DNA of 39,715 nucleotides. Source: a virus. Lineage: Duplodnaviria; Heunggongvirae; Uroviricota; Caudoviricetes. The notes below the pieces were generated by a model that was not told where the DNA came from, did no database searches, and saw only the letters and a list, made by a program, of their open reading frames with translations. The stretch is taken from the IMG/VR virus record IMGVR_UViG_2541047728_000019. One strand, given 5' to 3'. A program made the translations under genes and the position numbers. Position 1 is the first letter of the stretch. Each line of letters begins with the position of its first letter. This document shows, piece by piece, positions 3,386 through 35,810 of this stretch.

Positions 3386-6300
3386 TTAACGTTCTTCCAG
3401 AGACTGAATCCGCTCTTTTATCTTATCCATTTCTCTGCGCTGCCATGCTGCCTCGATATAGAATAAGAGATCAGGTCTGACCCCCCATCTAGATCCTGCT
3501 GGCGTTATTTCAACGCGCTCAATGATGTCTTCCATTACCATCACTGGATTATCATCCTCATCAACAATGATGCTCCCGTCATTATCAGTCAGCGGCATTT
3601 CCCTTTGGCCAGTAATGACGTCATCATATACTGCGGGATAATCGTCATAGCAAAGAAAGGCATAGCGGCATGTTGTGCTTTCTTCTTCCATGAGTCCGTG
3701 AGAAATAAGAACATCACGAAGTTGCTGCGCGATTACACCATGATGTATCCTCGCCCCTTCTTCCCCCTTTATAGCGACAGCGTTCAGCCATTTATAAGCG
3801 ATATACCTGACGTCACCCCAGGCATCCAGCAATGCTTCGTCAGGAGAGACCGGCTCTGTCTTTAATGTTCCGTCACTGGTAACCACAGGATTGGAGCCAA
3901 GATAAACTGTCGAGAACCTGTTTCCCGGACCACCAAGAGCATTTACATTATCAAGATAAGGTTTAACATCTCCGTTCTCAAAAAGATGTTCGAGTGCGTT
4001 ATATACCGCGCGACGTGGAGTACTGCTTCTGGAACCATGCAACGTTATCATTGCACCATCTGCTGAAGACGTTGTTTCACCGCCGCTAACGATTAATCTC
4101 TGAGCGGTAACATCATCAGACGGTACTTTCTTCGCAATAATGGCGTAATTACCCTCAAGTTTGACTTCCGCGCGAACTTGTCCTGATGTACCTGCATGGA
4201 CAGTCAGTGACTGGACGGCAACATCATCTGTGAAATCAACGGGTACAGGAACCGTCCTCACGCCTGACGTCGACATAAAAGTAGGAAGCGTTCTGTTAGG
4301 AGTGGCTCCGTAGACAAAATCCCTTGAAACAAATTCTTCCTGTTTAATTTTCACCCTGAAACAATACAAATCAGCCGGGTGACCATCGTGAACATAAGGA
4401 TATTTTCTGTTGTTATCCCCTATGCTCCATGGGTTTAGAAAGTCTTCCCCACCGAAAATGTAGTACAGCCAGTTGTCTTTGATACAAACTGAACCAACAC
4501 CAACCGCAGAGTTAACTATTCCGCCCTGATAAATCTGATCAGTAACATTAACCCACTCTACATTATCCAGACTCCACTCATTGACGTTAACTCTGGTCAT
4601 AAATGTTCTTGGATAATTTCCTGCATAACGGTTATCAGGTTCTCCTCCTTCCCACTCACCAAATGCGCGCTCACTGCCAAAAATAATCAGCTCATCGCCA
4701 ACTTTGGCAAAAGGAAGGTTTGAGTGATGAACATTATTTGGGAAGCGAAGAGAATTCCATGATGTACCTAAATCAGAGCTTCTGTGCAATGAACTACCGG
4801 GTTGAGTACTTAATGTCCCCCTGGTCGTCAGATACAGAATGCCATCATAATATTTTACACATGGCTCAGATGCATTCGCCTCATATTCTACAGGTATGCG
4901 TCTGCGAACAAAGCTACCAGGAGAACCGAAAGCATCAGAGAAATAGAGTATCCCAAGCTCGCGTGGACCAATATCACCATTATGGTAGCCAACAGCAAAA
5001 CTGTTATCGCTAATCGTCGCAAAACTGTGAATCTCAGTAACAGGAGTGCTTCCGTCAACAAAAGAAGGAATAGTTCCAAGACTGGTTTTTCTCCATGGTG
5101 ACGAGTGAAATGATGTGCCAAAACTCCAGTATCTACCCTCGTTATTCTGATCCACATCCTGGGTATTTTTCGTCGTAACTGTAAAGGTATTTTTATCAAT
5201 AACAGTAGTCACCGTCATATTCCCGGTAACACCTGTAACACCAGAGTTTGAGAAGTTGACAAAATCACCAGCAAATAATCCGTGATCAGTAATGCGAATA
5301 TAAGCGACTTGCTGATTTGCTGCTTTCGTTATACCACCATAAACGCGAAGGCTGCGACTCATTGGGCGATCCCACAACTCTGCAACCTGCAGTTTATTTC
5401 CGCTCACGGTCCGCGTCTCAATTACAGCAAAAAGGCGATTTCTGACAACCCCCATACTCATGCAGTGATAGTTAACTGTGGGATAGTTTTCATGTAAATC
5501 TGTAAGCCATTCCGGCGTTGTCCAGGTCTTCCCGTCATCTCCTGAGCGAACCCATGCAACATGGAGGTTATTTACACCATGGCGGTCTCCAGCCATAAAA
5601 GGCGCATAGATGACATTGTCATATACAAACGTTTTATCCTGCGTCCAGGCGTTGTACCACGGTGTATCTGTAATTTTAAATAACTCTCCCTGGATAAAAT
5701 CTTCAGAAGCATAAAAAAGAGGTTGGCCCGGTATTCTCTCAAATAAAAAACGAGCATTTTTAAATCGACTGACATCCGGAAGAGTTGATACTTTAAAAGT
5801 AAGCCCTAATCCGTCAATTTTATAACCTGGAGATGAGGCTTCAAGGCACGCGCTTATTGCAGTGGAATCGTCATTTATACCATCACCAACAGCTCCAAAA
5901 TCTTTGGGGCTAATAGCATCACGCATTTTATCCTGGAACGTTCGGTACACAGCCCCAGAACCATACTGAATAAACCAACCAAAACCACCAACAACCCCGG
6001 AGATTGCAGCATCGACATAATTACGCATTGAGCGATTATTTACAGCGTCCTGCTCAAATGATGGATCTGCAAGGTTAGAAATTTTGTTTTGCTTTGCATC
6101 GTAATATTTTGCAAGCAAAGATGGTTTCATCAATGCACGTCTGAACCACCCAAAACATTGCTGGATCAGCATCGTCAGATAGTCAAAGGCATCTTCATGC
6201 ACCTCGGGGAAAAATTTTCCCTGATTACGAAGATCAGTCTCCTGCACCACATCAAGCACACGATCTATCGTAATTCGCCATCCAGCAGCAAGCGGCGACG

Positions 6301-6505
6301 GAAGAACAACAGAACCGCCACTATAAGTGCCCGCCCCAGTTACCGTATAACCGGTATCCAGTACTAGTTCTGTTACGTTACCGTTAAGGTCAGACACCTG
6401 AACAACCAGGTCGGATTTTTTGAAAATACGGAAGGTATACGGAAATGATGTCGTAACGCCGTTACCAGTGTATTCGTTGTGGTCAACTTCGGTTGAGACC
6501 GTCAT
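3386..6505 (-). CDS. Tailspike: N-terminal particle-binding domain, central beta-helix-type depolymerase region, C-terminal intramolecular chaperone (peptidase S74-like) domain
   Basis: 1039 aa; DFGAVGDGINDDSTAI motif typical of pectate-lyase-like beta-helix enzymes; C-terminal DEALLDAWG...YKWLNAVAIKGEEGARIHHGVIAQQ matches self-cleaving chaperone domains; GGAGA SD. Confidence 0.85.
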   Translation of the reverse strand: MTVSTEVDHNEYTGNGVTTSFPYTFRIFKKSDLVVQVSDLNGNVTELVLDTGYTVTGAGTYSGGSVVLPSPLAAGWRITIDRVLDVVQETDLRNQGKFFPEVHEDAFDYLTMLIQQCFGWFRRALMKPSLLAKYYDAKQNKISNLADPSFEQDAVNNRSMRNYVDAAISGVVGGFGWFIQYGSGAVYRTFQDKMRDAISPKDFGAVGDGINDDSTAISACLEASSPGYKIDGLGLTFKVSTLPDVSRFKNARFLFERIPGQPLFYASEDFIQGELFKITDTPWYNAWTQDKTFVYDNVIYAPFMAGDRHGVNNLHVAWVRSGDDGKTWTTPEWLTDLHENYPTVNYHCMSMGVVRNRLFAVIETRTVSGNKLQVAELWDRPMSRSLRVYGGITKAANQQVAYIRITDHGLFAGDFVNFSNSGVTGVTGNMTVTTVIDKNTFTVTTKNTQDVDQNNEGRYWSFGTSFHSSPWRKTSLGTIPSFVDGSTPVTEIHSFATISDNSFAVGYHNGDIGPRELGILYFSDAFGSPGSFVRRRIPVEYEANASEPCVKYYDGILYLTTRGTLSTQPGSSLHRSSDLGTSWNSLRFPNNVHHSNLPFAKVGDELIIFGSERAFGEWEGGEPDNRYAGNYPRTFMTRVNVNEWSLDNVEWVNVTDQIYQGGIVNSAVGVGSVCIKDNWLYYIFGGEDFLNPWSIGDNNRKYPYVHDGHPADLYCFRVKIKQEEFVSRDFVYGATPNRTLPTFMSTSGVRTVPVPVDFTDDVAVQSLTVHAGTSGQVRAEVKLEGNYAIIAKKVPSDDVTAQRLIVSGGETTSSADGAMITLHGSRSSTPRRAVYNALEHLFENGDVKPYLDNVNALGGPGNRFSTVYLGSNPVVTSDGTLKTEPVSPDEALLDAWGDVRYIAYKWLNAVAIKGEEGARIHHGVIAQQLRDVLISHGLMEEESTTCRYAFLCYDDYPAVYDDVITGQREMPLTDNDGSIIVDEDDNPVMVMEDIIERVEITPAGSRWGVRPDLLFYIEAAWQRREMDKIKERIQSLEER

Positions 6506-6661: not shown

Positions 6662-6681
6662 TACTGTATAAATATACAGTT
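6662..6681 (+). promoter_or_regulatory. LexA (SOS) box TACTGTATAAATATACAGTT
   Basis: CTGT-N8-ACAG with AT-rich spacer, matches LexA consensus taCTGT(AT)4ACAGta; centred about 30 bp upstream of ATG 6701. Confidence 0.6.
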
Positions 6682-6700: not shown

Positions 6701-6958
6701 ATGCAGCAGTATCACTATCCACTGGAAGACGGATTTACCGAAAGGATTCACACGCCGGGAGGCGTCAGGTCACTGGTGGAGGGATCGCACTTGATGAAAT
6801 TACTCCGGGATCTCGATAAGGATGGATTTAATGTCGATGGCCCACTTGCCGAACTGACTGCACTGATTAACTACGTCACCAGCTCACAGATGTCTATGCA
6901 GGATCTGCAAACACATCTCGACTATTGTGCCGAACAATTACGAAAACAAACCCGGTAA
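6701..6958 (+). CDS. Small antirepressor-like protein: stand-alone copy of the Ant C-terminal module
   Basis: 85 aa; clear similarity (IHTPGGV..LMKLL..DG.NV.G..AELT...Y...DLQTH.DY) to the C-termini of both Ant proteins; GGAG SD 8 nt upstream; LexA box in promoter. Confidence 0.55.
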   Translation: MQQYHYPLEDGFTERIHTPGGVRSLVEGSHLMKLLRDLDKDGFNVDGPLAELTALINYVTSSQMSMQDLQTHLDYCAEQLRKQTR

Positions 6959-6964
6959 ATTTAA

Positions 6965-6982
6965 AGGCCGCAAGAGCGGCCT
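6965..6982. terminator. Bidirectional terminator hairpin aggccgc-aaga-gcggcct
   Basis: 7-bp GC stem between convergent genes; near-identical hairpin at 9612-9629. Confidence 0.5.
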
Positions 6983-7709
6983 ATCGTTTCGCTTTGTGCT
7001 CGTCCCAGCACGTTTTGCACCATGCCATTAAGCCGTCCGCATTTTGATTATTAGGGTAAAAGCTGGTCCGTTTTCTGCGGACATTACAAATTGGGCACCA
7101 CTTCATATGGCGTGTATTCTTTGGGCCATCGAGACACCTTGCACACCACTTAGTCAATCCATCTGGATTTTTTGACGATTTCCGGAATTTGTCATATGGA
7201 AGGTTTATTCTGCATCGCAAACACTGCTTGCGGCCACTTGAAACTCTGTTAGCTGATTCTTCTTTTGGCGGCGATACAGAAGGTATTCTTGCTGGCTCTG
7301 ATACTGCCTGAGGTGCTTTTTTAGATGACTGAGACGATATGTCATCACCAGGGAATCTTCCATGATATGCCGGACGCGTTGACACTCCAGGTGGAAGCTC
7401 AGCTGTAAACGGCTTTGGCTGAATCAGTTGCCTCTCTTTTGCTAACTCCTGCTGTTTATAATATGTCTGGATTACCGCGCTATCATAAGCAGGAGGTACG
7501 GAAATATTAGGCGCATTATCTCCCGTTTTTTGAAACTGAGTGGAGGTGTGTTCTATCACCTGTGTACGATTAATCGTTATCTCCCCATCTTCAGTCTTTA
7601 TCGTTTTGTTATGATTAACGACCGTACGATCAGAGATCTTAGTCTTGTTCTGGTTGATAACGTAAATAATCACCGCAACCACACCAACAACTACCCAGAA
7701 AACTTCCAT
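6981..7709 (-). CDS. Membrane-anchored protein with two tandem CxxC-x22-CxxC zinc-ribbon repeats
   Basis: N-terminal TM helix, Pro/Ser-rich linker, repeats CLRC...DGLTKWCARC and CPIC...DGLMAWCKTC; strong GAGGAAAGG SD; operator palindrome about 20 bp upstream. Confidence 0.6.
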   Translation of the reverse strand: MEVFWVVVGVVAVIIYVINQNKTKISDRTVVNHNKTIKTEDGEITINRTQVIEHTSTQFQKTGDNAPNISVPPAYDSAVIQTYYKQQELAKERQLIQPKPFTAELPPGVSTRPAYHGRFPGDDISSQSSKKAPQAVSEPARIPSVSPPKEESANRVSSGRKQCLRCRINLPYDKFRKSSKNPDGLTKWCARCLDGPKNTRHMKWCPICNVRRKRTSFYPNNQNADGLMAWCKTCWDEHKAKR

Positions 7710-7744: not shown

Positions 7745-7822
7745 TATCTTGCTTTCAGGTGATCAAGCGTTAAACGCAATCAACCAAATACGGTTGATTT
7801 TAATATTTCTTCGCGTTTATCA

Positions 7823-7837
7823 TTACCTTTGCGGTAA
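7823..7837. promoter_or_regulatory. Operator-like palindrome TTACC-TTTGC-GGTAA overlapping a candidate -10
   Basis: Preceded by TTGATT-N18-TATCAT; faces the KilA-N antirepressor gene. Confidence 0.55.
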
Positions 7838-8104
7838 ATTTACATCGCACTCCTCTTGTGCCATAGTAATCGGGCACTGGCAAAATCCAGTGCCGGGATT
7901 GGTCTCCCGGATTACTACAGAGGCACATATGCCGCATAAGCGGTTTTTTTATGTGTAAAGCGCACCTATTCTATGGTGGGCTGTGTGGGGGCACCGAAAG
8001 GTGCGCCGGGTTCCTTTGTAGCCGGTAAGACCAACTCTGCACAGTTCACCACCATCTGATTGGTCTCAGCGGTGGTGATTAACCTAACTACAAAGGTGAT
8101 CGCC

Positions 8105-8797
8105 ATGAATACCAAACCTTCCATCTTTTCCTTTGAGTCATCCTGCCAGATCCGTATGTTCATGATTGACGGAGAACCTTGGTTTGTCACCAAAGATGTG
8201 TGCAATGCTTTGAATATTGATGTTACACAAGCGAGAAAACTTGATAAAAAAGGCTGGAACAAAAAGGGGCTGTATTCAATACAGACCCCTGGTGGAATAC
8301 AAGAACTATCCATCGTTTCAGAATCAGGTCTCTACATCCTTATTCTGCGTTGCAAAGAGGCAATGACTGAGGGAACGAGAGCATTCAGATTTCTTGAATG
8401 GGTTACAGGTGAGGTTCTTCCTCAGATCCGCCGCACCGGAAGTTACATTAAAAACTCGCTCCCGCAGGAAGAACGCATAAAGATGGTTGCCGACCAGGTA
8501 GCCAACGCCACAGCATCAGCAGTGATGCAGGCAATGAAGATAGAGAACAAAACCTACAGTGCCCCACTGAAGCCCGGCTACCGCAGCCTGATTCATTCTC
8601 CGTCTGGTGTTCTCGGCCTGACGGAGCACTCACTGCTGATGAATCTGTTGAACCAGTTACAGGAAGACGGGCACGACGTATCGGGCGCGGCGGCGGAGCT
8701 GACCACCATGTTCTGCTACATCGTCGGTGTGAGCAAATGCCTGCGTGATATCCAGACTCACGCGGAGTACATCAACGACAAGGCAGGGTTCTTCTGA
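8105..8797 (+). CDS. Antirepressor, Bro-N/KilA-N N-terminal domain plus shared Ant C-terminal module
   Basis: Bro-N signature (FVTKDVCNAL...SESGLYILILR...FLEWVTGEVLPQIRRTGSY); start MNTKPS at 8105; C-terminal 77 aa near-identical to the other Ant. Confidence 0.8.
   Translation: MNTKPSIFSFESSCQIRMFMIDGEPWFVTKDVCNALNIDVTQARKLDKKGWNKKGLYSIQTPGGIQELSIVSESGLYILILRCKEAMTEGTRAFRFLEWVTGEVLPQIRRTGSYIKNSLPQEERIKMVADQVANATASAVMQAMKIENKTYSAPLKPGYRSLIHSPSGVLGLTEHSLLMNLLNQLQEDGHDVSGAAAELTTMFCYIVGVSKCLRDIQTHAEYINDKAGFF
8564..8797 (+). repeat. Left arm of a 234-bp inverted repeat (about 95 percent identical to 9689-9922)
   Basis: Codon-by-codon comparison by eye: 11 differences, 10 synonymous; encodes the shared Ant C-terminal module. 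Confidence 0.8.
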
Positions 8798-8868
8798 CGG
8801 CGGCGGCACAGGGATGTGCCTTTAAATAATTCTGTACGATTGCAGACCGGGGGGTGAATAGAGTACTA

Positions 8869-8883
8869 TTACCTTACGGGTGA
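8869..8883. promoter_or_regulatory. Operator-like palindrome TTACC-TTACG-GGTGA (one mismatch)
   Basis: Preceded by TTGCAG-N18-TACTAT, upstream of leader ORF and the 9013 gene. Confidence 0.45.
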
Positions 8884-8920
8884 TCCATAGCGATTAGGCA
8901 CCGATACAGGAGGAGCCCAC

Positions 8921-8953
8921 ATGAGAAAATTTGACGAGTACGAAGGCGTTTAA
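8921..8953 (+). other. Candidate 10-codon leader ORF (MRKFDEYEGV)
   Basis: Strong AGGAGG SD upstream; followed 20 nt later by a terminator-like hairpin. Confidence 0.3.
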
Positions 8954-8972
8954 CATTCGGATAGTTTAATGA

Positions 8973-8997
8973 CGGGGCCATTAGGCCCCGTTTTCAT
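8973..8997 (+). terminator. Terminator/attenuator-like hairpin 15 nt upstream of the 9013 start
   Basis: cggggcc-atta-ggccccg stem then TTTTCAT. Confidence 0.45.
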
Positions 8998-9012
8998 GTC
9001 TGGAGACAGTTT

Positions 9013-9552
9013 GTGTTAAGTGAAGAAATGCAATTTGCCATGGCTGTGGCTCAAATCGTAAGTGCAGTCGCGGTTTCGCTTGGCTTGTTCATAGCTATCG
9101 CTACTATTATTTATAATGTAAATACAGCGAGAAAAGTACACACTTCAGTATTCCTTGGTGAAAGCAGGTTTGATGTAGATTATAAGAAAGGCCTATCTAC
9201 TATGCGCCGCATTCACGAGTCGAACAAATCATTCCGCTCTTATATGTATCCAAGCAATGGGCAGGCTGATCTTACGGATGAAGAAAAGATAGAGAAGAGA
9301 GAAATAATTTACTGTCTAGGTTTCTACGAACGCATGGCTGTGAGCGTGAAGCGGAAAACTTATGATGAGACCATGATTAAGGAAGTATTTTACAGCTCCG
9401 TTGTAAATAACTATCAGATTGCGCTACCTCTTATACAAGCTATTAGAGAAAAAGAAAACATAAACACATATTTTAAAGAATATGAATGGTTGGCCACACG
9501 ATGGAAGGATTGTCCATTGAAGGATAAATCCCCGTGGTACAAGTTTTGGTAA
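9013..9552 (+). CDS. Membrane-anchored protein, unknown function (candidate superinfection-exclusion or abortive-infection factor)
   Basis: GTG start with GGAG SD; N-terminal TM helix then about 150-aa soluble domain; AT-rich relative to neighbours. Confidence 0.6.
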   Translation: MLSEEMQFAMAVAQIVSAVAVSLGLFIAIATIIYNVNTARKVHTSVFLGESRFDVDYKKGLSTMRRIHESNKSFRSYMYPSNGQADLTDEEKIEKREIIYCLGFYERMAVSVKRKTYDETMIKEVFYSSVVNNYQIALPLIQAIREKENINTYFKEYEWLATRWKDCPLKDKSPWYKFW

Positions 9553-9574
9553 GCCCGCGCTGCGGGCTTTTTTG
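9552..9574 (+). terminator. Rho-independent terminator after the 9013 gene
   Basis: agcccgc/gcgggct stem then T-run, directly after stop. Confidence 0.6.
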
Positions 9575-9602
9575 TGTCTGCGGATTCCCGCCCGGGTGGC
9601 GG

Positions 9603-9629
9603 TGGCATTCGTTAAAAACAAGGCCGCGA
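9603..9629 (-). terminator. Rho-independent terminator after the AntA-type antirepressor
   Basis: aggccgc-gaaa-gcggcct stem preceded by A-run on plus strand (U-run on minus transcript). Confidence 0.55.
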
Positions 9630-9688
9630 AAGCGGCCTGTGACATGTCACGCTAGTTTCGTTTTGCACGTCCCTGTGCCGCCGTTCTG

Positions 9689-9922
9689 TCAGAAGAACCC
9701 TGCCTTGTCGTTGATGTATTCCGCGTGCGTCTGGATATCACGCAGGCATTTGCTCACACCAACGATGTAGCAGAACATGGTGGTCAGCTCCGCCGCCGCG
9801 CCCGATACATCGTGCCCGTCTTCCTGTAACTGGTTCAGCAGATTCATCAGCAGTGAGTTCTCCGTCAGGCCGAGAACACCCGACGGCGAATGAATCAGAC
9901 TGCGGTAGCCTGGCTTCAATGG
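9689..9922 (-). repeat. Right arm of the 234-bp inverted repeat
   Basis: Reverse complement aligns to 8564-8797 with about 95 percent identity. Confidence 0.8.
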
Positions 9923-10627
9923 ATAACCATAACATTTTGTCTGTGTTTTAATTGCCTCACGAAGCGCATCTAACATCTTGACTGCCACTTCATCATTCTC
10001 TGATGCAGATCCAGCAGGGAGATACTCCCCTTCAAGCGGAACCCGAGCAACAAGAGACAACGCTTCGGCAAATTGATCTTCACCAATTTCTTTGTACGAA
10101 CAGCCAAAATGAGATTTCAGTGACGACCACATGGTGATCATCGCCTTAGCCTGTTTTTCTTTTGGCAGAGACTGACCGCGACTCATGACGAGTTGTTTAA
10201 TGGCTTCCTGCTGTTCAGTTGTTATTTTACCCGGCAACGCCTTTTTAGCTTTGCGTGGGTTAACCACATGGCCTTTAGTCCAGTACTCGTAGAGCACATC
10301 GTCACACTCTTCCTGATACTGGATTACCTTGTCGCGGATTTCAGGGCGGACTTTGTTAGGGCTGATGCTGTTCAACCAAGCTGCCAATTTTCGTAAAGCC
10401 ATACAAATCATGGCTTGCACCCCACCGGCAGAAGGTATGGTGATTTCCACCATACCCTTCGAGAAGCGTTGAGAAATCTTCTTATGTTGAGATTTCCAGT
10501 CTAGCCCCATTCCCTCAACGATAGGTTTCATTGGGGTATACGGTTCGCCGTTGTGATTGACAACATAAAGCTCTGCGCCGTGGAATGGCACGTTGATAGT
10601 AGATACTGCTGTTGCTATACTCGTCAT
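9689..10627 (-). CDS. ant: Antirepressor, AntA-type N-terminal domain plus shared Ant C-terminal module
   Basis: N-terminal PFHGAELYVVNHNGEPYTPMKPIVEGMGLDW resembles AntA; downstream of Arc-like gene as in P22 immI. Confidence 0.8.
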   Translation of the reverse strand: MTSIATAVSTINVPFHGAELYVVNHNGEPYTPMKPIVEGMGLDWKSQHKKISQRFSKGMVEITIPSAGGVQAMICMALRKLAAWLNSISPNKVRPEIRDKVIQYQEECDDVLYEYWTKGHVVNPRKAKKALPGKITTEQQEAIKQLVMSRGQSLPKEKQAKAMITMWSSLKSHFGCSYKEIGEDQFAEALSLVARVPLEGEYLPAGSASENDEVAVKMLDALREAIKTQTKCYGYPLKPGYRSLIHSPSGVLGLTENSLLMNLLNQLQEDGHDVSGAAAELTTMFCYIVGVSKCLRDIQTHAEYINDKAGFF

Positions 10628-10676
10628 GTCGTTAATTCCTATACGTAGTTTTACGATACTGAAGCCCTGACGGTCT

Positions 10677-10690
10677 GGCCACCGTGGGGC
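10677..10690. promoter_or_regulatory. GC-rich dyad GGCCACCGTGGGGC between arc-like and ant
   Basis: Near-palindrome; second copy at 10882-10896. Confidence 0.35.
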
Positions 10691-10699
10691 TTCGCTGTT

Positions 10700-10867
10700 T
10701 TATGCCACGCTATTCTTCTCACCAGTGAGTCCATACACTTTCCTCAGCTGATAGATAATCTCTGTATTGAACTTTCGGCATTCTTTTTCGCCATTTCTTT
10801 CAATAGCTAACTTCACATCGTCCGGAAAACGAACTCGTCGTTGACACATCTCTTTTGCTTTTTGCAT
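10700..10867 (-). CDS. arc: Arc-like ribbon-helix-helix repressor
   Basis: 55 aa; RVRFPDDVKLAIERNGEKECRKFNTEIIYQLRKVYG parallels P22 Arc; AGGAGA SD before ATG 10867. Confidence 0.7.
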   Translation of the reverse strand: MQKAKEMCQRRVRFPDDVKLAIERNGEKECRKFNTEIIYQLRKVYGLTGEKNSVA

Positions 10868-10881
10868 TTCATATCTCCTTA

Positions 10882-10896
10882 GCCCCACCGTGGGGC
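10882..10896. promoter_or_regulatory. GC-rich dyad GCCCCACCGTGGGGC in the arc/mnt divergent control region
   Basis: Near-perfect palindrome overlapping arc 5' region; further dyads (CACCGTG...CACGGTG) nearby. Confidence 0.4.
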
Positions 10897-10987
10897 AAAA
10901 TAATTGTCACACCGTGCGTCATTGATGTCAAGCACACGGTGAGGCATACTTCAATCATTGCAAGTAACTCAATATTTGGTGAAGAAC

Positions 10988-11419
10988 ATGAGCAGAGAAG
11001 ATCCACAACTAAGGATCAGACTTCCCGTCGAAGTAAAAGAAAAAATAGAAATTTCTGCAAAAGCCAATAAGCGATCAATGAACGCTGAAATAGTACAACG
11101 TCTTGACACCAGCTTTCTGAAAGATATTCATGAAGATGACGTAATTTCTGCTTATGAAGCAAAAATCATTGCAAACAATGCACGACATGAAATATCAAAT
11201 ATTATTTTCAAAAGAACCTTTAATGAAATTAATAAGAAAATAACACTTGGACATACAAGTTTTTATATAAACCTTAATGACCTTGAACTGGAATCACTTG
11301 CAGATAATGATTACCAGATCATCTTTGAAAAAACATTTAATAAGCTCAATGAACTAGGTTACATCATCTGTGAAAACTCATGGGATGCAGATGGTTTTGG
11401 AATTGAAATACCTGAATAG
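10988..11419 (+). CDS. mnt: Mnt-like ribbon-helix-helix repressor with about 95-aa C-terminal extension
   Basis: MSREDPQLRIRLPVEVKEKIEISAKANKRSMNAEIVQRL closely parallels the P22 Mnt N-terminus; divergent from arc-ant; very AT-rich. Confidence 0.7.
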   Translation: MSREDPQLRIRLPVEVKEKIEISAKANKRSMNAEIVQRLDTSFLKDIHEDDVISAYEAKIIANNARHEISNIIFKRTFNEINKKITLGHTSFYINLNDLELESLADNDYQIIFEKTFNKLNELGYIICENSWDADGFGIEIPE

Positions 11420-35225: not shown

Positions 35226-35810
35226 ATGAAAAGTATCCAGGACGTCCGCAGGCAAAATCTCAACGACTTGATCGACCGTGAATTCAATGGTGTTCAGACG
35301 CGGATGGCTGAAAAACTTGGAACTCAGGCAAATCTGGTAAACCGCTGGGCTCTTGGCAAGAAGGTTATCGGCGACCAGGTTGCACGAAAAATTGAAGCTG
35401 CCGCCAATAAACCCCGTAACTGGCTTGATATCGATCGCTCGCTTTCTCAGGAAGGTTTTCAGCCTGTCGGCCCAAGCGACATTGGCCAGCTGGCGGCTCA
35501 CAACCTGGAACGCTGGATGAGCGAAAGCCGCGACCTTTCAACACAGGGAAAACTTCACCGCGCATCCGGCGTAGCCCAGGTGACAATCAGCCGCCTATTA
35601 AACAATGAGGTCAGCGTTTCCATTTCCACCCTGGAGAATGTTGCATCCGCATTCGGGCGTCACGGCTATGAATTACTGATTCACCCGCACGACCCTGCGA
35701 CCATCAACTATGATCGCTCGCGCTACGCATTGTTACCCGAAACCGAGAAAGCAAAGATCGAAAGTTACATTGAATTTGTCATCAACCAGAACGAAAAAAA
35801 CAAACAATAA
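35226..35810 (+). CDS. Repressor-like DNA-binding protein with two HTH-like segments and no S24 peptidase domain
   Basis: 194 aa; HTH-like QTRMAEKLGTQANLVNRWALGKK and a second in the C-half; no Ser/Lys autocleavage motifs seen. Confidence 0.6.
   Translation: MKSIQDVRRQNLNDLIDREFNGVQTRMAEKLGTQANLVNRWALGKKVIGDQVARKIEAAANKPRNWLDIDRSLSQEGFQPVGPSDIGQLAAHNLERWMSESRDLSTQGKLHRASGVAQVTISRLLNNEVSVSISTLENVASAFGRHGYELLIHPHDPATINYDRSRYALLPETEKAKIESYIEFVINQNEKNKQ

Follow-up and report, generated by a model that had tools for sequence, protein, structure and literature searches.

An SPC32H Ant-like C-terminal module shared by two convergent genes of an epsilon15/phiV10-like temperate phage

Head swapping in the Bro network, the immI regions of phages P22 and P1 and the Ant-Rep pair of Salmonella phage SPC32H are already known, and are the closest described counterparts of the locus considered here. 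This locus comprises two convergent genes (A and B) that end in the same C-terminal module, encoded as an inverted repeat in a 39,715-nucleotide stretch of viral DNA (Caudoviricetes; IMG/VR record IMGVR_UViG_2541047728_000019), the whole of which is hereafter termed the window. The swapping of heads onto alternative tails in the Bro network was reportedly set out by Iyer and colleagues in 2002. This network consists of domain-swapping regulators of phages and satellites, whose heads often lie beside C4/isrK immunity RNAs (Mageeney et al. 2023, PMC10111431). The C4/isrK pair serves P1/P7 immI and P4 as their RNA immunity device (PMC8201110; PMC10111431). In SPC32H, Ant is a protein of 86 amino acids whose complex with Rep has been crystallised (PDB 5D50); by binding two Rep dimers, one Ant tetramer takes apart the tetrameric, DNA-binding form of Rep, according to the part of PMC9638917 that cites Kim et al. 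2016. Antirepressors under SOS/LexA control, including that of SPC32H, are known from Salmonella prophages (PMC7380047). The question at stake is which part of the common large antirepressors of phages, such as P22 Ant, P1 Ant and the Bro/KilA/AntA proteins, makes contact with the repressor, and what role their DNA-binding-like heads play.

The shared tail of genes A and B

Judged by sequence homology, the module is a complete homologue of SPC32H Ant that has become fused to other domains. The tail of gene A matches chain 5D50_E ('Anti-repressor protein') with E = 1.7e-13 over chain residues 3-79 of 86, and the module is 39% identical to SPC32H Ant; because the match covers the stand-alone protein at full length, the module would not be a fragment. 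No Pfam or NCBIfam model lies over the shared tail. PHROG 450, an 88-residue family listed as 'unknown function', matches both the module (4.7e-34; residues 147-228 of gene A and 230-310 of gene B) and a small Ant encoded elsewhere in the window (9e-48). Homology to stand-alone relatives begins approximately 10-15 residues N-terminal of the high-identity block, giving a module of about 85 residues with a less conserved start. These relatives, aligned from Klebsiella, Raoultella and E. coli, form a graded series of 84-104 amino acids, in which one protein (P0013) is a chimera of the small-Ant type and the module type. The small Ant of the window is free-standing; it shares 88% identity with SPC32H Ant and 43% with the module, to which it has no similarity at the nucleotide level. 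The window further encodes a homologue of the SPC32H repressor, whose product is 43% identical to 5D50_A over residues 1-190 (Table 1). An earlier sequence-only reading of this DNA mentioned neither the free-standing paralogue at 6701-6958 nor the regulatory RNAs described below.

The same reading had proposed that genes A and B share the module as an inverted repeat of about 95% identity, with 11 substitutions of which 10 are silent and one replaces His with Asn, and that they face each other across a membrane-protein gene at 9013-9552. This description was borne out in coordinates, counts and layout. Compared codon by codon without gaps, 8564-8797 (plus strand) and the reverse complement of 9689-9922 agree at 223 of 234 bases, and 10 of the 11 substitutions are synonymous; the sole amino-acid difference is between CAC (His, 8627-8629) and AAC (Asn, 9857-9859). 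A repeat search yielded an ungapped inverted repeat of 270 nt (8529-8798 / 9688-9957, 91%), and gapped blastn aligned 8564-8819 with 9665-9922 (243/258, 94%; E = 2e-114). The repeat therefore reaches approximately 22-24 nt past both stop codons, and these last nucleotides include a shared GGCACAGGGAYGTGC hairpin. Similarity drops away within a few codons 5' of 8564 and 9922, the longest perfect run common to the arms is 47 nt and the spacer between them, which contains the membrane-protein gene, is 891 bp. Nei-Gojobori counting (S = 55 and N = 176 sites) gave dS = 0.208, dN = 0.0057 and dN/dS = 0.027, with a binomial P of 5e-6 for at least 10 silent changes among 11 under neutrality. Silent change is hence in excess, rather than comparable with nonsynonymous change.

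Ahead of the module, the two proteins carry different domains. The Bro-N label given to gene A in the sequence-only reading stands, whereas the domain of gene B labelled AntA is P22_AR_N (PF10547); P22_AR_C (PF10548) was absent from gene B in the Pfam scan. The ATG of gene A is at 8105, in a frame open from a TTG at 8060, and PGAP annotates a gene of 693 bp at this position in related genomes. The window itself is a temperate podophage of epsilon15/phiV10-like (Uetakevirus-type) affiliation with an endosialidase tailspike, and the same layout is found in phage TL-2011b and in several prophages of E. coli. Matches to parts of the 8300-10200 region occur in 957 of 5426 complete E. coli genomes.

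The module was surveyed in IMG/VR, where 315 stretches encode it; the best 80 loci, the window and six GenBank/RefSeq loci were analysed, making 87 loci with 117 module-bearing genes, of which 116 complete arms were used for variation counts. A word-index protein search with the 77-residue module returned only 19 short proteins and no fusions owing to the limits of the index, and the IMG/VR loci and a profile search were used instead. In the 87 loci the module follows Bro-N (72 genes), AntA (22), P22_AR_N (21) and ORF6N (1). The profile search, across 1.84 billion representatives, found only 61 clusters, mostly stand-alone proteins of 80-95 residues, and added a fifth head, Rha (Phage_pRha). 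Attachment of one module to different N-terminal domains, first suggested from two genes, thus holds for five kinds of head.

Variation among the 116 arms is extensive in DNA and slight in protein. They comprise 102 DNA haplotypes and nine protein variants; six of the 58 polymorphic nucleotide sites involve an amino-acid change, and mean pN/pS is 0.023. The variable module residues are 22 (H/N), 31, 34 (E/D), 47, 57 and 76. Module identity is at least 96%, compared with a mean of 76% and a minimum of 61% for the Bro-N heads. All four allele combinations occur at 204 of 351 pairs of common sites, and arms of the same genome differ at 9.3 positions as against 8.8 between genomes (permutation P = 0.36). 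The arms behave as a single pool of alleles that recombines freely and is under strong purifying selection; the two copies in the window are two draws from it, and not a young duplicate or a pair matched by conversion. The earlier contention that the repeat is under purifying selection and is no fresh duplication is borne out by these figures.

Control circuits and their proposed convergence

Genes A and B are associated with the regulatory elements of two classical immunity systems, with three regulatory RNAs in a single 3-kb stretch: an isrK/seqA-like target and a C4-type RNA before gene A, and sar at gene B (Table 1). At the gene A leader, the c4-a1b1 model scored 39.9, under its cut-off of 46.7, and no ORF lies between the C4 end (8056) and the ATG at 8105. 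A promoter scan placed a promoter-like site for the arc-like/gene B operon at 10931-10903. The product of the divergent mnt-like gene has 153 residues, with the Arc/ribbon-helix-helix domain at residues 12-56 followed by an extension of approximately 95 residues without a family match; we take it to be much longer than P22 Mnt. Among 16 related loci, an isrK and C4 pair of its own accompanies every module-bearing gene with a Bro-N, AntA or ORF6N head, and sar is present at every P22_AR_N gene. At least three C4 alleles occur among these loci. The C4 RNAs before different heads (in L004, L021, L044 and others) are distinct alleles scoring 78.6, 66 and 61.2 bits, and loci with two C4-type antirepressor genes therefore hold two RNA immunities that presumably do not cross-react.

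The small ant gene appears to be controlled differently. LexA boxes are not enriched across the window (12 found, 13 expected), and only the site at 6664 is regarded as meaningful, on account of its position and extended consensus; its location 5' of the small ant fits the SOS-controlled antirepressors of Salmonella prophages (PMC7380047). Genes A and B are without a LexA box, their control being by C4 or sar. A palindrome, ATTACC-N5-GGTAAT, occurs 14 times in the window with up to two mismatches (1.2 expected) and is clustered around rep (positions 2720, 6609, 7729, 7822, 8868, 26805, 29950, 29968, 32806, 32868, 34770, 35155, 35867 and 35929). Sites of this kind flank rep and the early operons, and are also found upstream of the cargo gene, the small ant and the gene A operon. 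The palindromes are probably Rep operators.

Two comparisons bear on whether the tail sets the target. Gene B is approximately 96% identical to CUS-3 Ant over residues 1-202, after which similarity is fully lost: the C-terminus of CUS-3 Ant is P22_AR_C (5e-29), that of gene B the SPC32H-type module. P22-like phages use a C2 repressor of the lambda-CI type, and the repressor of CUS-3 is taken to be of this kind. Gene A has an orthologue in ORF4 of vB_EcoP_ZX5, which is 80% identical overall; the Bro-N allele differs, the linker is identical and the module matches at 76 of 77 residues. When this ORF was overexpressed, lysogen counts fell from 10^9 to 10^6 and the level of rep mRNA by 75%; the authors recorded only the Bro-N domain in it (PMC9782041).

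Table 1. Coordinates of the module-bearing genes, the repeat arms and associated features in the window
Feature	Position	Strand	Evidence or remark
LexA box, perfect, CTGTATAAATATACAG	6664..6679	+	22 nt upstream of the free-standing ant gene
Third paralogue, free-standing Ant, 85 aa	6701..6958	+	5D50_E, E = 5.4e-47
ATTACC-N5-GGTAAT palindrome, putative Rep operator	7822..7838		Overlaps promoter-like site of the gene A operon
isrK/seqA-like target RNA and terminator, gene A leader	7874..7950	+	Rfam RF01394, 74.7 bits (gathering 50)
C4-type antisense immunity RNA, directly upstream of gene A	7969..8056	+	Rfam RF01695, 78.6 bits (gathering 45)
Gene A: Bro-N, linker and Ant-like module, 230 aa	8105..8797	+	Pfam Bro-N, 2.1e-13
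Arm A	8564..8819	+	Last 77 codons and stop of gene A (8564-8797), then 22 nt of shared 3' hairpin
Cargo between arms: DUF4760 membrane protein, one N-terminal hydrophobic helix	9013..9552	+	Pfam, 1.6e-30
Intrinsic terminator after the cargo gene	9551..9569	+	Terminator prediction
Intrinsic terminator after gene B, in the conserved right-hand cassette end (9577-9688)	9621..9638	-	Terminator prediction
Arm B	9665..9922	-	Last 77 codons and stop of gene B (9689-9922), then 24 nt of shared 3' hairpin
Gene B: P22_AR_N, middle region and Ant-like module, 312 aa	9689..10627	-	PF10547, 5.9e-45
sar antisense RNA, opposite the arc-ant junction of gene B	10629..10696	+	Rfam RF00262, 44.8 bits (gathering 43)
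arc-like gene, same operon, upstream of gene B	10700..10888	-	Identical gene in TL-2011b annotated 'Arc-like repressor'
mnt-like divergent repressor gene, Arc/ribbon-helix-helix domain	10958..11419	+	Pfam Arc, 1.2e-14
rep, SPC32H repressor homologue, presumed target of all three Ant modules	35226..35810	+	5D50_A, E = 4e-42

Genes A and B are likely to act as antirepressors in two different immI-type circuits, both of which deliver the same Ant-type effector. Gene A would be the output of a circuit in the style of P1, P7 and P4, comprising a promoter, an isrK/seqA-like target, a C4 antisense RNA and a Bro-N protein, and gene B that of a P22-style circuit of mnt, arc, sar and a P22_AR_N protein. 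In both, the fused module would bind Rep as SPC32H Ant does, with some contribution from the N-terminal domains; the binding of Rep by the fused module is the weakest link of this model. The earlier proposal that the module is the repressor-binding part nevertheless gains support from its homology to 5D50_E, the presence of a Rep homologue in the window and the exchange of tails between gene B and CUS-3 Ant. As Rep, a LexA-controlled free Ant and two fused modules occur together in the window, three differently regulated genes would most likely converge on one repressor. The near constancy of the module may be explained by its having to keep fitting its target, while heads, together with their RNA and protein regulators, would vary through recombination at the module boundary. 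The inverted repeat would then be a by-product of two such genes standing tail to tail around an accessory-gene slot, supplying homology for occasional inversion and, with the conserved cassette ends, for cargo exchange.

A more specific version of this model is held tentatively, with a chance put slightly short of even. It envisages a hub in which the SOS/LexA-controlled small Ant, the C4-RNA-controlled Bro-N-Ant fusion and the Mnt/Arc/sar-controlled P22_AR_N-Ant fusion all act on one SPC32H-type repressor, the Ant unit having retargeted P1- and P22-type immI systems by replacing the C-terminus. Were this correct, the C-terminal domain would set repressor specificity in large antirepressors, leaving the Bro-N, AntA and KilA-N-like heads for another role.

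The inter-arm segment and alternative explanations

The slot between the arms is interchangeable. In the window it holds a DUF4760 gene, and elsewhere a YafO toxin-antitoxin pair, a small membrane-anchored protein, DUF2335 or other genes. Convergent module pairs (Bro-N/P22_AR_N, AntA/P22_AR_N, Bro-N/Bro-N and Bro-N/AntA) were found in 30 of the 87 loci, always around variable cargo of 782-1517 bp; a Bro-N/ORF6N pair in the complete genome of E. coli MS 196-1 (L087) encloses 2424 bp. Conserved cassette ends, 8798-8876 on the left and 9577-9688 on the right, flank the cargo in all related loci. The window has a mosaic structure, with flanks that match an APEC O2:K1 prophage carrying a YafO cassette at 99.7-99.8% identity and cargo that matches another prophage at 98.6%; the breakpoints, at ~8876 and ~9577, fall in the conserved cassette ends outside the arms. 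DUF4760 had no PADLOC defence match, and next to nothing on it was found in the literature. In the leader of the DUF4760 gene (8900-8990), a strong Shine-Dalgarno sequence is accompanied by an ORF of 10 codons (8922-8954) and by a GC-rich hairpin with TTTT after it (8961-8990); this leader may be an attenuator.

Inversion of the inter-arm segment, for which the sequence-only reading had considered the repeat a substrate, has occurred in one lineage. In this lineage (L021, a contig from IMG, and L087), the whole inter-arm region is inverted relative to outside landmarks. In L021, the cargo is the reverse complement of that of L006 (99.7% over 1271 nt). Ahead of the arm, the left gene of L021 matches gene A at 98.7% identity; left and right have exchanged the sequences directly past the stop codons, and the arms are chimeric, with patches of left-type and of right-type alleles. 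L087 has two cassettes, both inverted, and shares the junction of L021 with 98.8% identity over 5 kb, which therefore points to one inversion event. The membrane-anchor cargo gene occurs in 62 copies of standard orientation and three inverted copies, all of the latter in L021 and L087, and a synthetic inverted query found the inverted DUF4760 cassette in none of 5426 E. coli genomes at a coverage of at least 80%. No recombinase gene is present among the ORFs in the 6.4-12.1 kb region, all of which are accounted for. The repeat is thus most probably a consequence of gene arrangement and not a switch, as inversion is rare, no recombinase lies nearby, terminators on both strands separate the two operons and neither protein would be changed.

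Several other candidates for inversion were rejected. Seemingly inverted matches in H89, H90, H118, H119 and H126 are ordinary loci with a window-type Bro-N gene at the right-hand position, and minus-strand YafO matches in nine loci are distant paralogues in a different slot. Loci with a window-type Bro-N gene at the right-hand (minus) position have an adjoining truncated 5' P22_AR_N fragment that points away from it, and arc and mnt are gone (L021, 6148-6354; L088, 4467-4853; L089, 4660-4863; L090, 3472-3858; L091, 3466-3903; L092, 3972-4358). This fragment is the scar of a rearrangement.

The region to the left of gene A is also variable. The gene at 6981-7709 (minus strand) encodes a protein of 242 amino acids with an N-terminal hydrophobic helix, a Cys-rich C-terminus and a weak Stc1 match. 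Lying between the small ant and the C4 cassette, this gene fills a slot that is polymorphic: it is missing in L003 and L021 and is replaced at other loci by a distant YafO paralogue. Further left, 3386-6505 (minus strand) encodes the K1 capsule-specific endosialidase tailspike, on an otherwise epsilon15/phiV10-like backbone; in related prophages its place is taken by genes for SGNH hydrolase, glycosyl hydrolase 28 or tail fibres.

Two alternatives concern the repeat itself. The near-identity of the arms could stem from recent duplication or from gene conversion within genomes (concerted evolution), instead of selection on the protein. Such an origin would agree with the scant differentiation between arms of Bro-N, AntA and P22_AR_N genes (8.0-8.5 differences within and 8.3-10.0 between head types), and the chimeric arms of the inverted lineage indicate that sequence moves between the two positions. 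Yet arms from the same genome are no closer than random pairs, dS between the window arms is 0.21, and single-arm loci are equally conserved; moreover, conversion alone cannot yield a pattern in which 10 of 11 differences in the window and ~52 of 58 variable sites in the population are silent. Since arms do not group by genome, gene conversion was rejected as the cause of their identity, and this family of explanations is scarcely credible. Alternatively, the inverted repeat might be selected in its own right, either as a recombination device that flips the cargo and so changes the operon reading into it, or as an RNA-level element, with transcriptional read-through producing a double-stranded RNA of 234 bp. 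The recurrence of convergent pairs around variable cargo, the extension of the repeat past the stop codons, the existence of one inverted lineage and a perfect run long enough for homologous recombination are all compatible with this idea. It is nonetheless very improbable, given that the one inversion event is so rare among standard loci, recombinase genes are lacking from the vicinity, terminators at 9551-9569 (plus strand) and 9638-9621 (minus strand) block read-through, the breakpoints of cargo exchange lie outside the arms and the substitutions follow codons as opposed to pairing.

A third alternative concerns the function of the module, which might be mainly an oligomerization or scaffold domain, with the variable heads choosing the target, be it repressor, DNA or host factor. 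SPC32H Ant acts as a tetramer in the account given in PMC9638917, the heads are diverse and derive from DNA-interactive 'Bro network' families (PMC10111431), and the predicted module is mostly one long C-terminal helix, as is typical of coiled-coil assemblies. Set against this, the same 86 residues bind Rep on their own in SPC32H (complex 5D50), a purely structural role predicts weaker surface constraint than nine protein variants in 102 haplotypes, and the head that gene B shares with CUS-3 Ant is combined with a tail that changes with phage type, the repressor type of CUS-3 being assumed as above. A scaffold role is consequently viewed as unlikely, though less so than the two alternatives above. 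Repressor binding by the module, the preferred interpretation, has its own difficulties. An AlphaFold2 monomer of the module (88 residues, 12-sequence alignment, pLDDT 73), all-helical and dominated by the long C-terminal helix, gave no Foldseek match in the PDB at E < 4, 5D50_E included, and the identity of the fold consequently depends on sequence comparison; the module is probably an obligate oligomer that was modelled as a monomer. With identities as low as 39% to SPC32H Ant and 43% to the small Ant, the module may recognize another repressor or another surface. Identity to the SPC32H counterparts is also uneven, at 88% for the small Ant but only 43% for Rep; Ant-Rep matching is therefore not simple co-divergence, which is unexpected for a specific inhibitor. 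The overexpression experiment with ZX5 ORF4 used the whole protein, not the module alone (PMC9782041). Finally, if a free Ant of 86 amino acids suffices, the model leaves the retention of the N-terminal domains unexplained.

Comparison with known systems

Sharing of a tail among antirepressors is a tidy and unsurprising case of phage modular evolution, and a specialist may find it neat rather than startling. It nevertheless offers an unusually clean natural experiment on repressor recognition and on Bro-type heads: one tail on five heads, one head on two tails and a free tail in the same genome are natural controls that make the division of labour directly testable. The finding also proposes a function for an unannotated domain (PHROG 450, without a Pfam model) present in a large share of E. 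coli prophages, and would account for the ability of several independent signals to induce a single prophage, or to let it break the immunity of a resident. The literature search found no description of this E. coli prophage antirepressor tail as SPC32H Ant, of Ant as the joint output of P1-type and P22-type immI systems in one phage beside a free LexA-controlled paralogue, or of the module copies as one recombining, strongly constrained pool.

The arrangement of the repeat recalls the invertible segments of Mu (G/Gin) and P1 (C/Cin) and the shufflons, in which inverted repeats likewise lie within the 3' ends of convergent genes; for this reason, inversion leaves both reading frames intact. 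It differs from these systems in having no invertase, arms that are coding repeats of 256 nt in place of short crossover sites and only rare inversion, and because both arms encode the same tail, inversion changes no protein.

The two circuits resemble those of well-studied phages in different respects. As in P1/P7 immI (c4-icd-ant), P4 (CI/seqA) and Gifsy-1 (isrK), a C4 RNA and an isrK/seqA-like target precede gene A and its counterparts with Bro-N, AntA and ORF6N heads. Unlike in P1/P7, no icd-like gene was identified (there is no ORF from 8056 to 8105), and the output is a Bro-N-Ant fusion. Gene B stands last in its P22-type immI region and corresponds to the ant gene of P22 immI (mnt-arc-sar-ant) and to CUS-3 Ant in its P22_AR_N domain, its arc-like, divergent mnt-like and sar neighbours and the near-identity of residues 1-202 to CUS-3 Ant. 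It is distinct in that P22_AR_C is replaced by the SPC32H-type module, in a phage that is epsilon15/phiV10-like (Uetakevirus) and not P22-like. The orthologue of gene A in vB_EcoP_ZX5, ORF4, has been found experimentally to push that phage away from lysogeny (PMC9782041), but ZX5 has a single arm and homology of the protein to Ant is not recorded in that study. In common with the Bro network, Bro-N, AntA, ORF6N, P22_AR_N and Rha heads are here combined with one tail in the company of C4/isrK RNAs, whereas the tail, lacking a Pfam or NCBIfam model and belonging to PHROG 450, can be identified with a known stand-alone antirepressor.

The Ant-Rep pair of SPC32H (PDB 5D50; Kim & Ryu 2013; Kim et al. 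2016) is matched by a full-length Ant homologue in the module, an 88% identical free Ant with a LexA box and a homologue of Rep. It differs from the fusions in that the Ant unit of genes A and B, at 39% identity, stands behind heads of 150-235 residues and is controlled by C4 RNA or by Mnt, Arc and sar in place of LexA, the free and LexA-controlled form being represented only by the third paralogue at 6701-6958.

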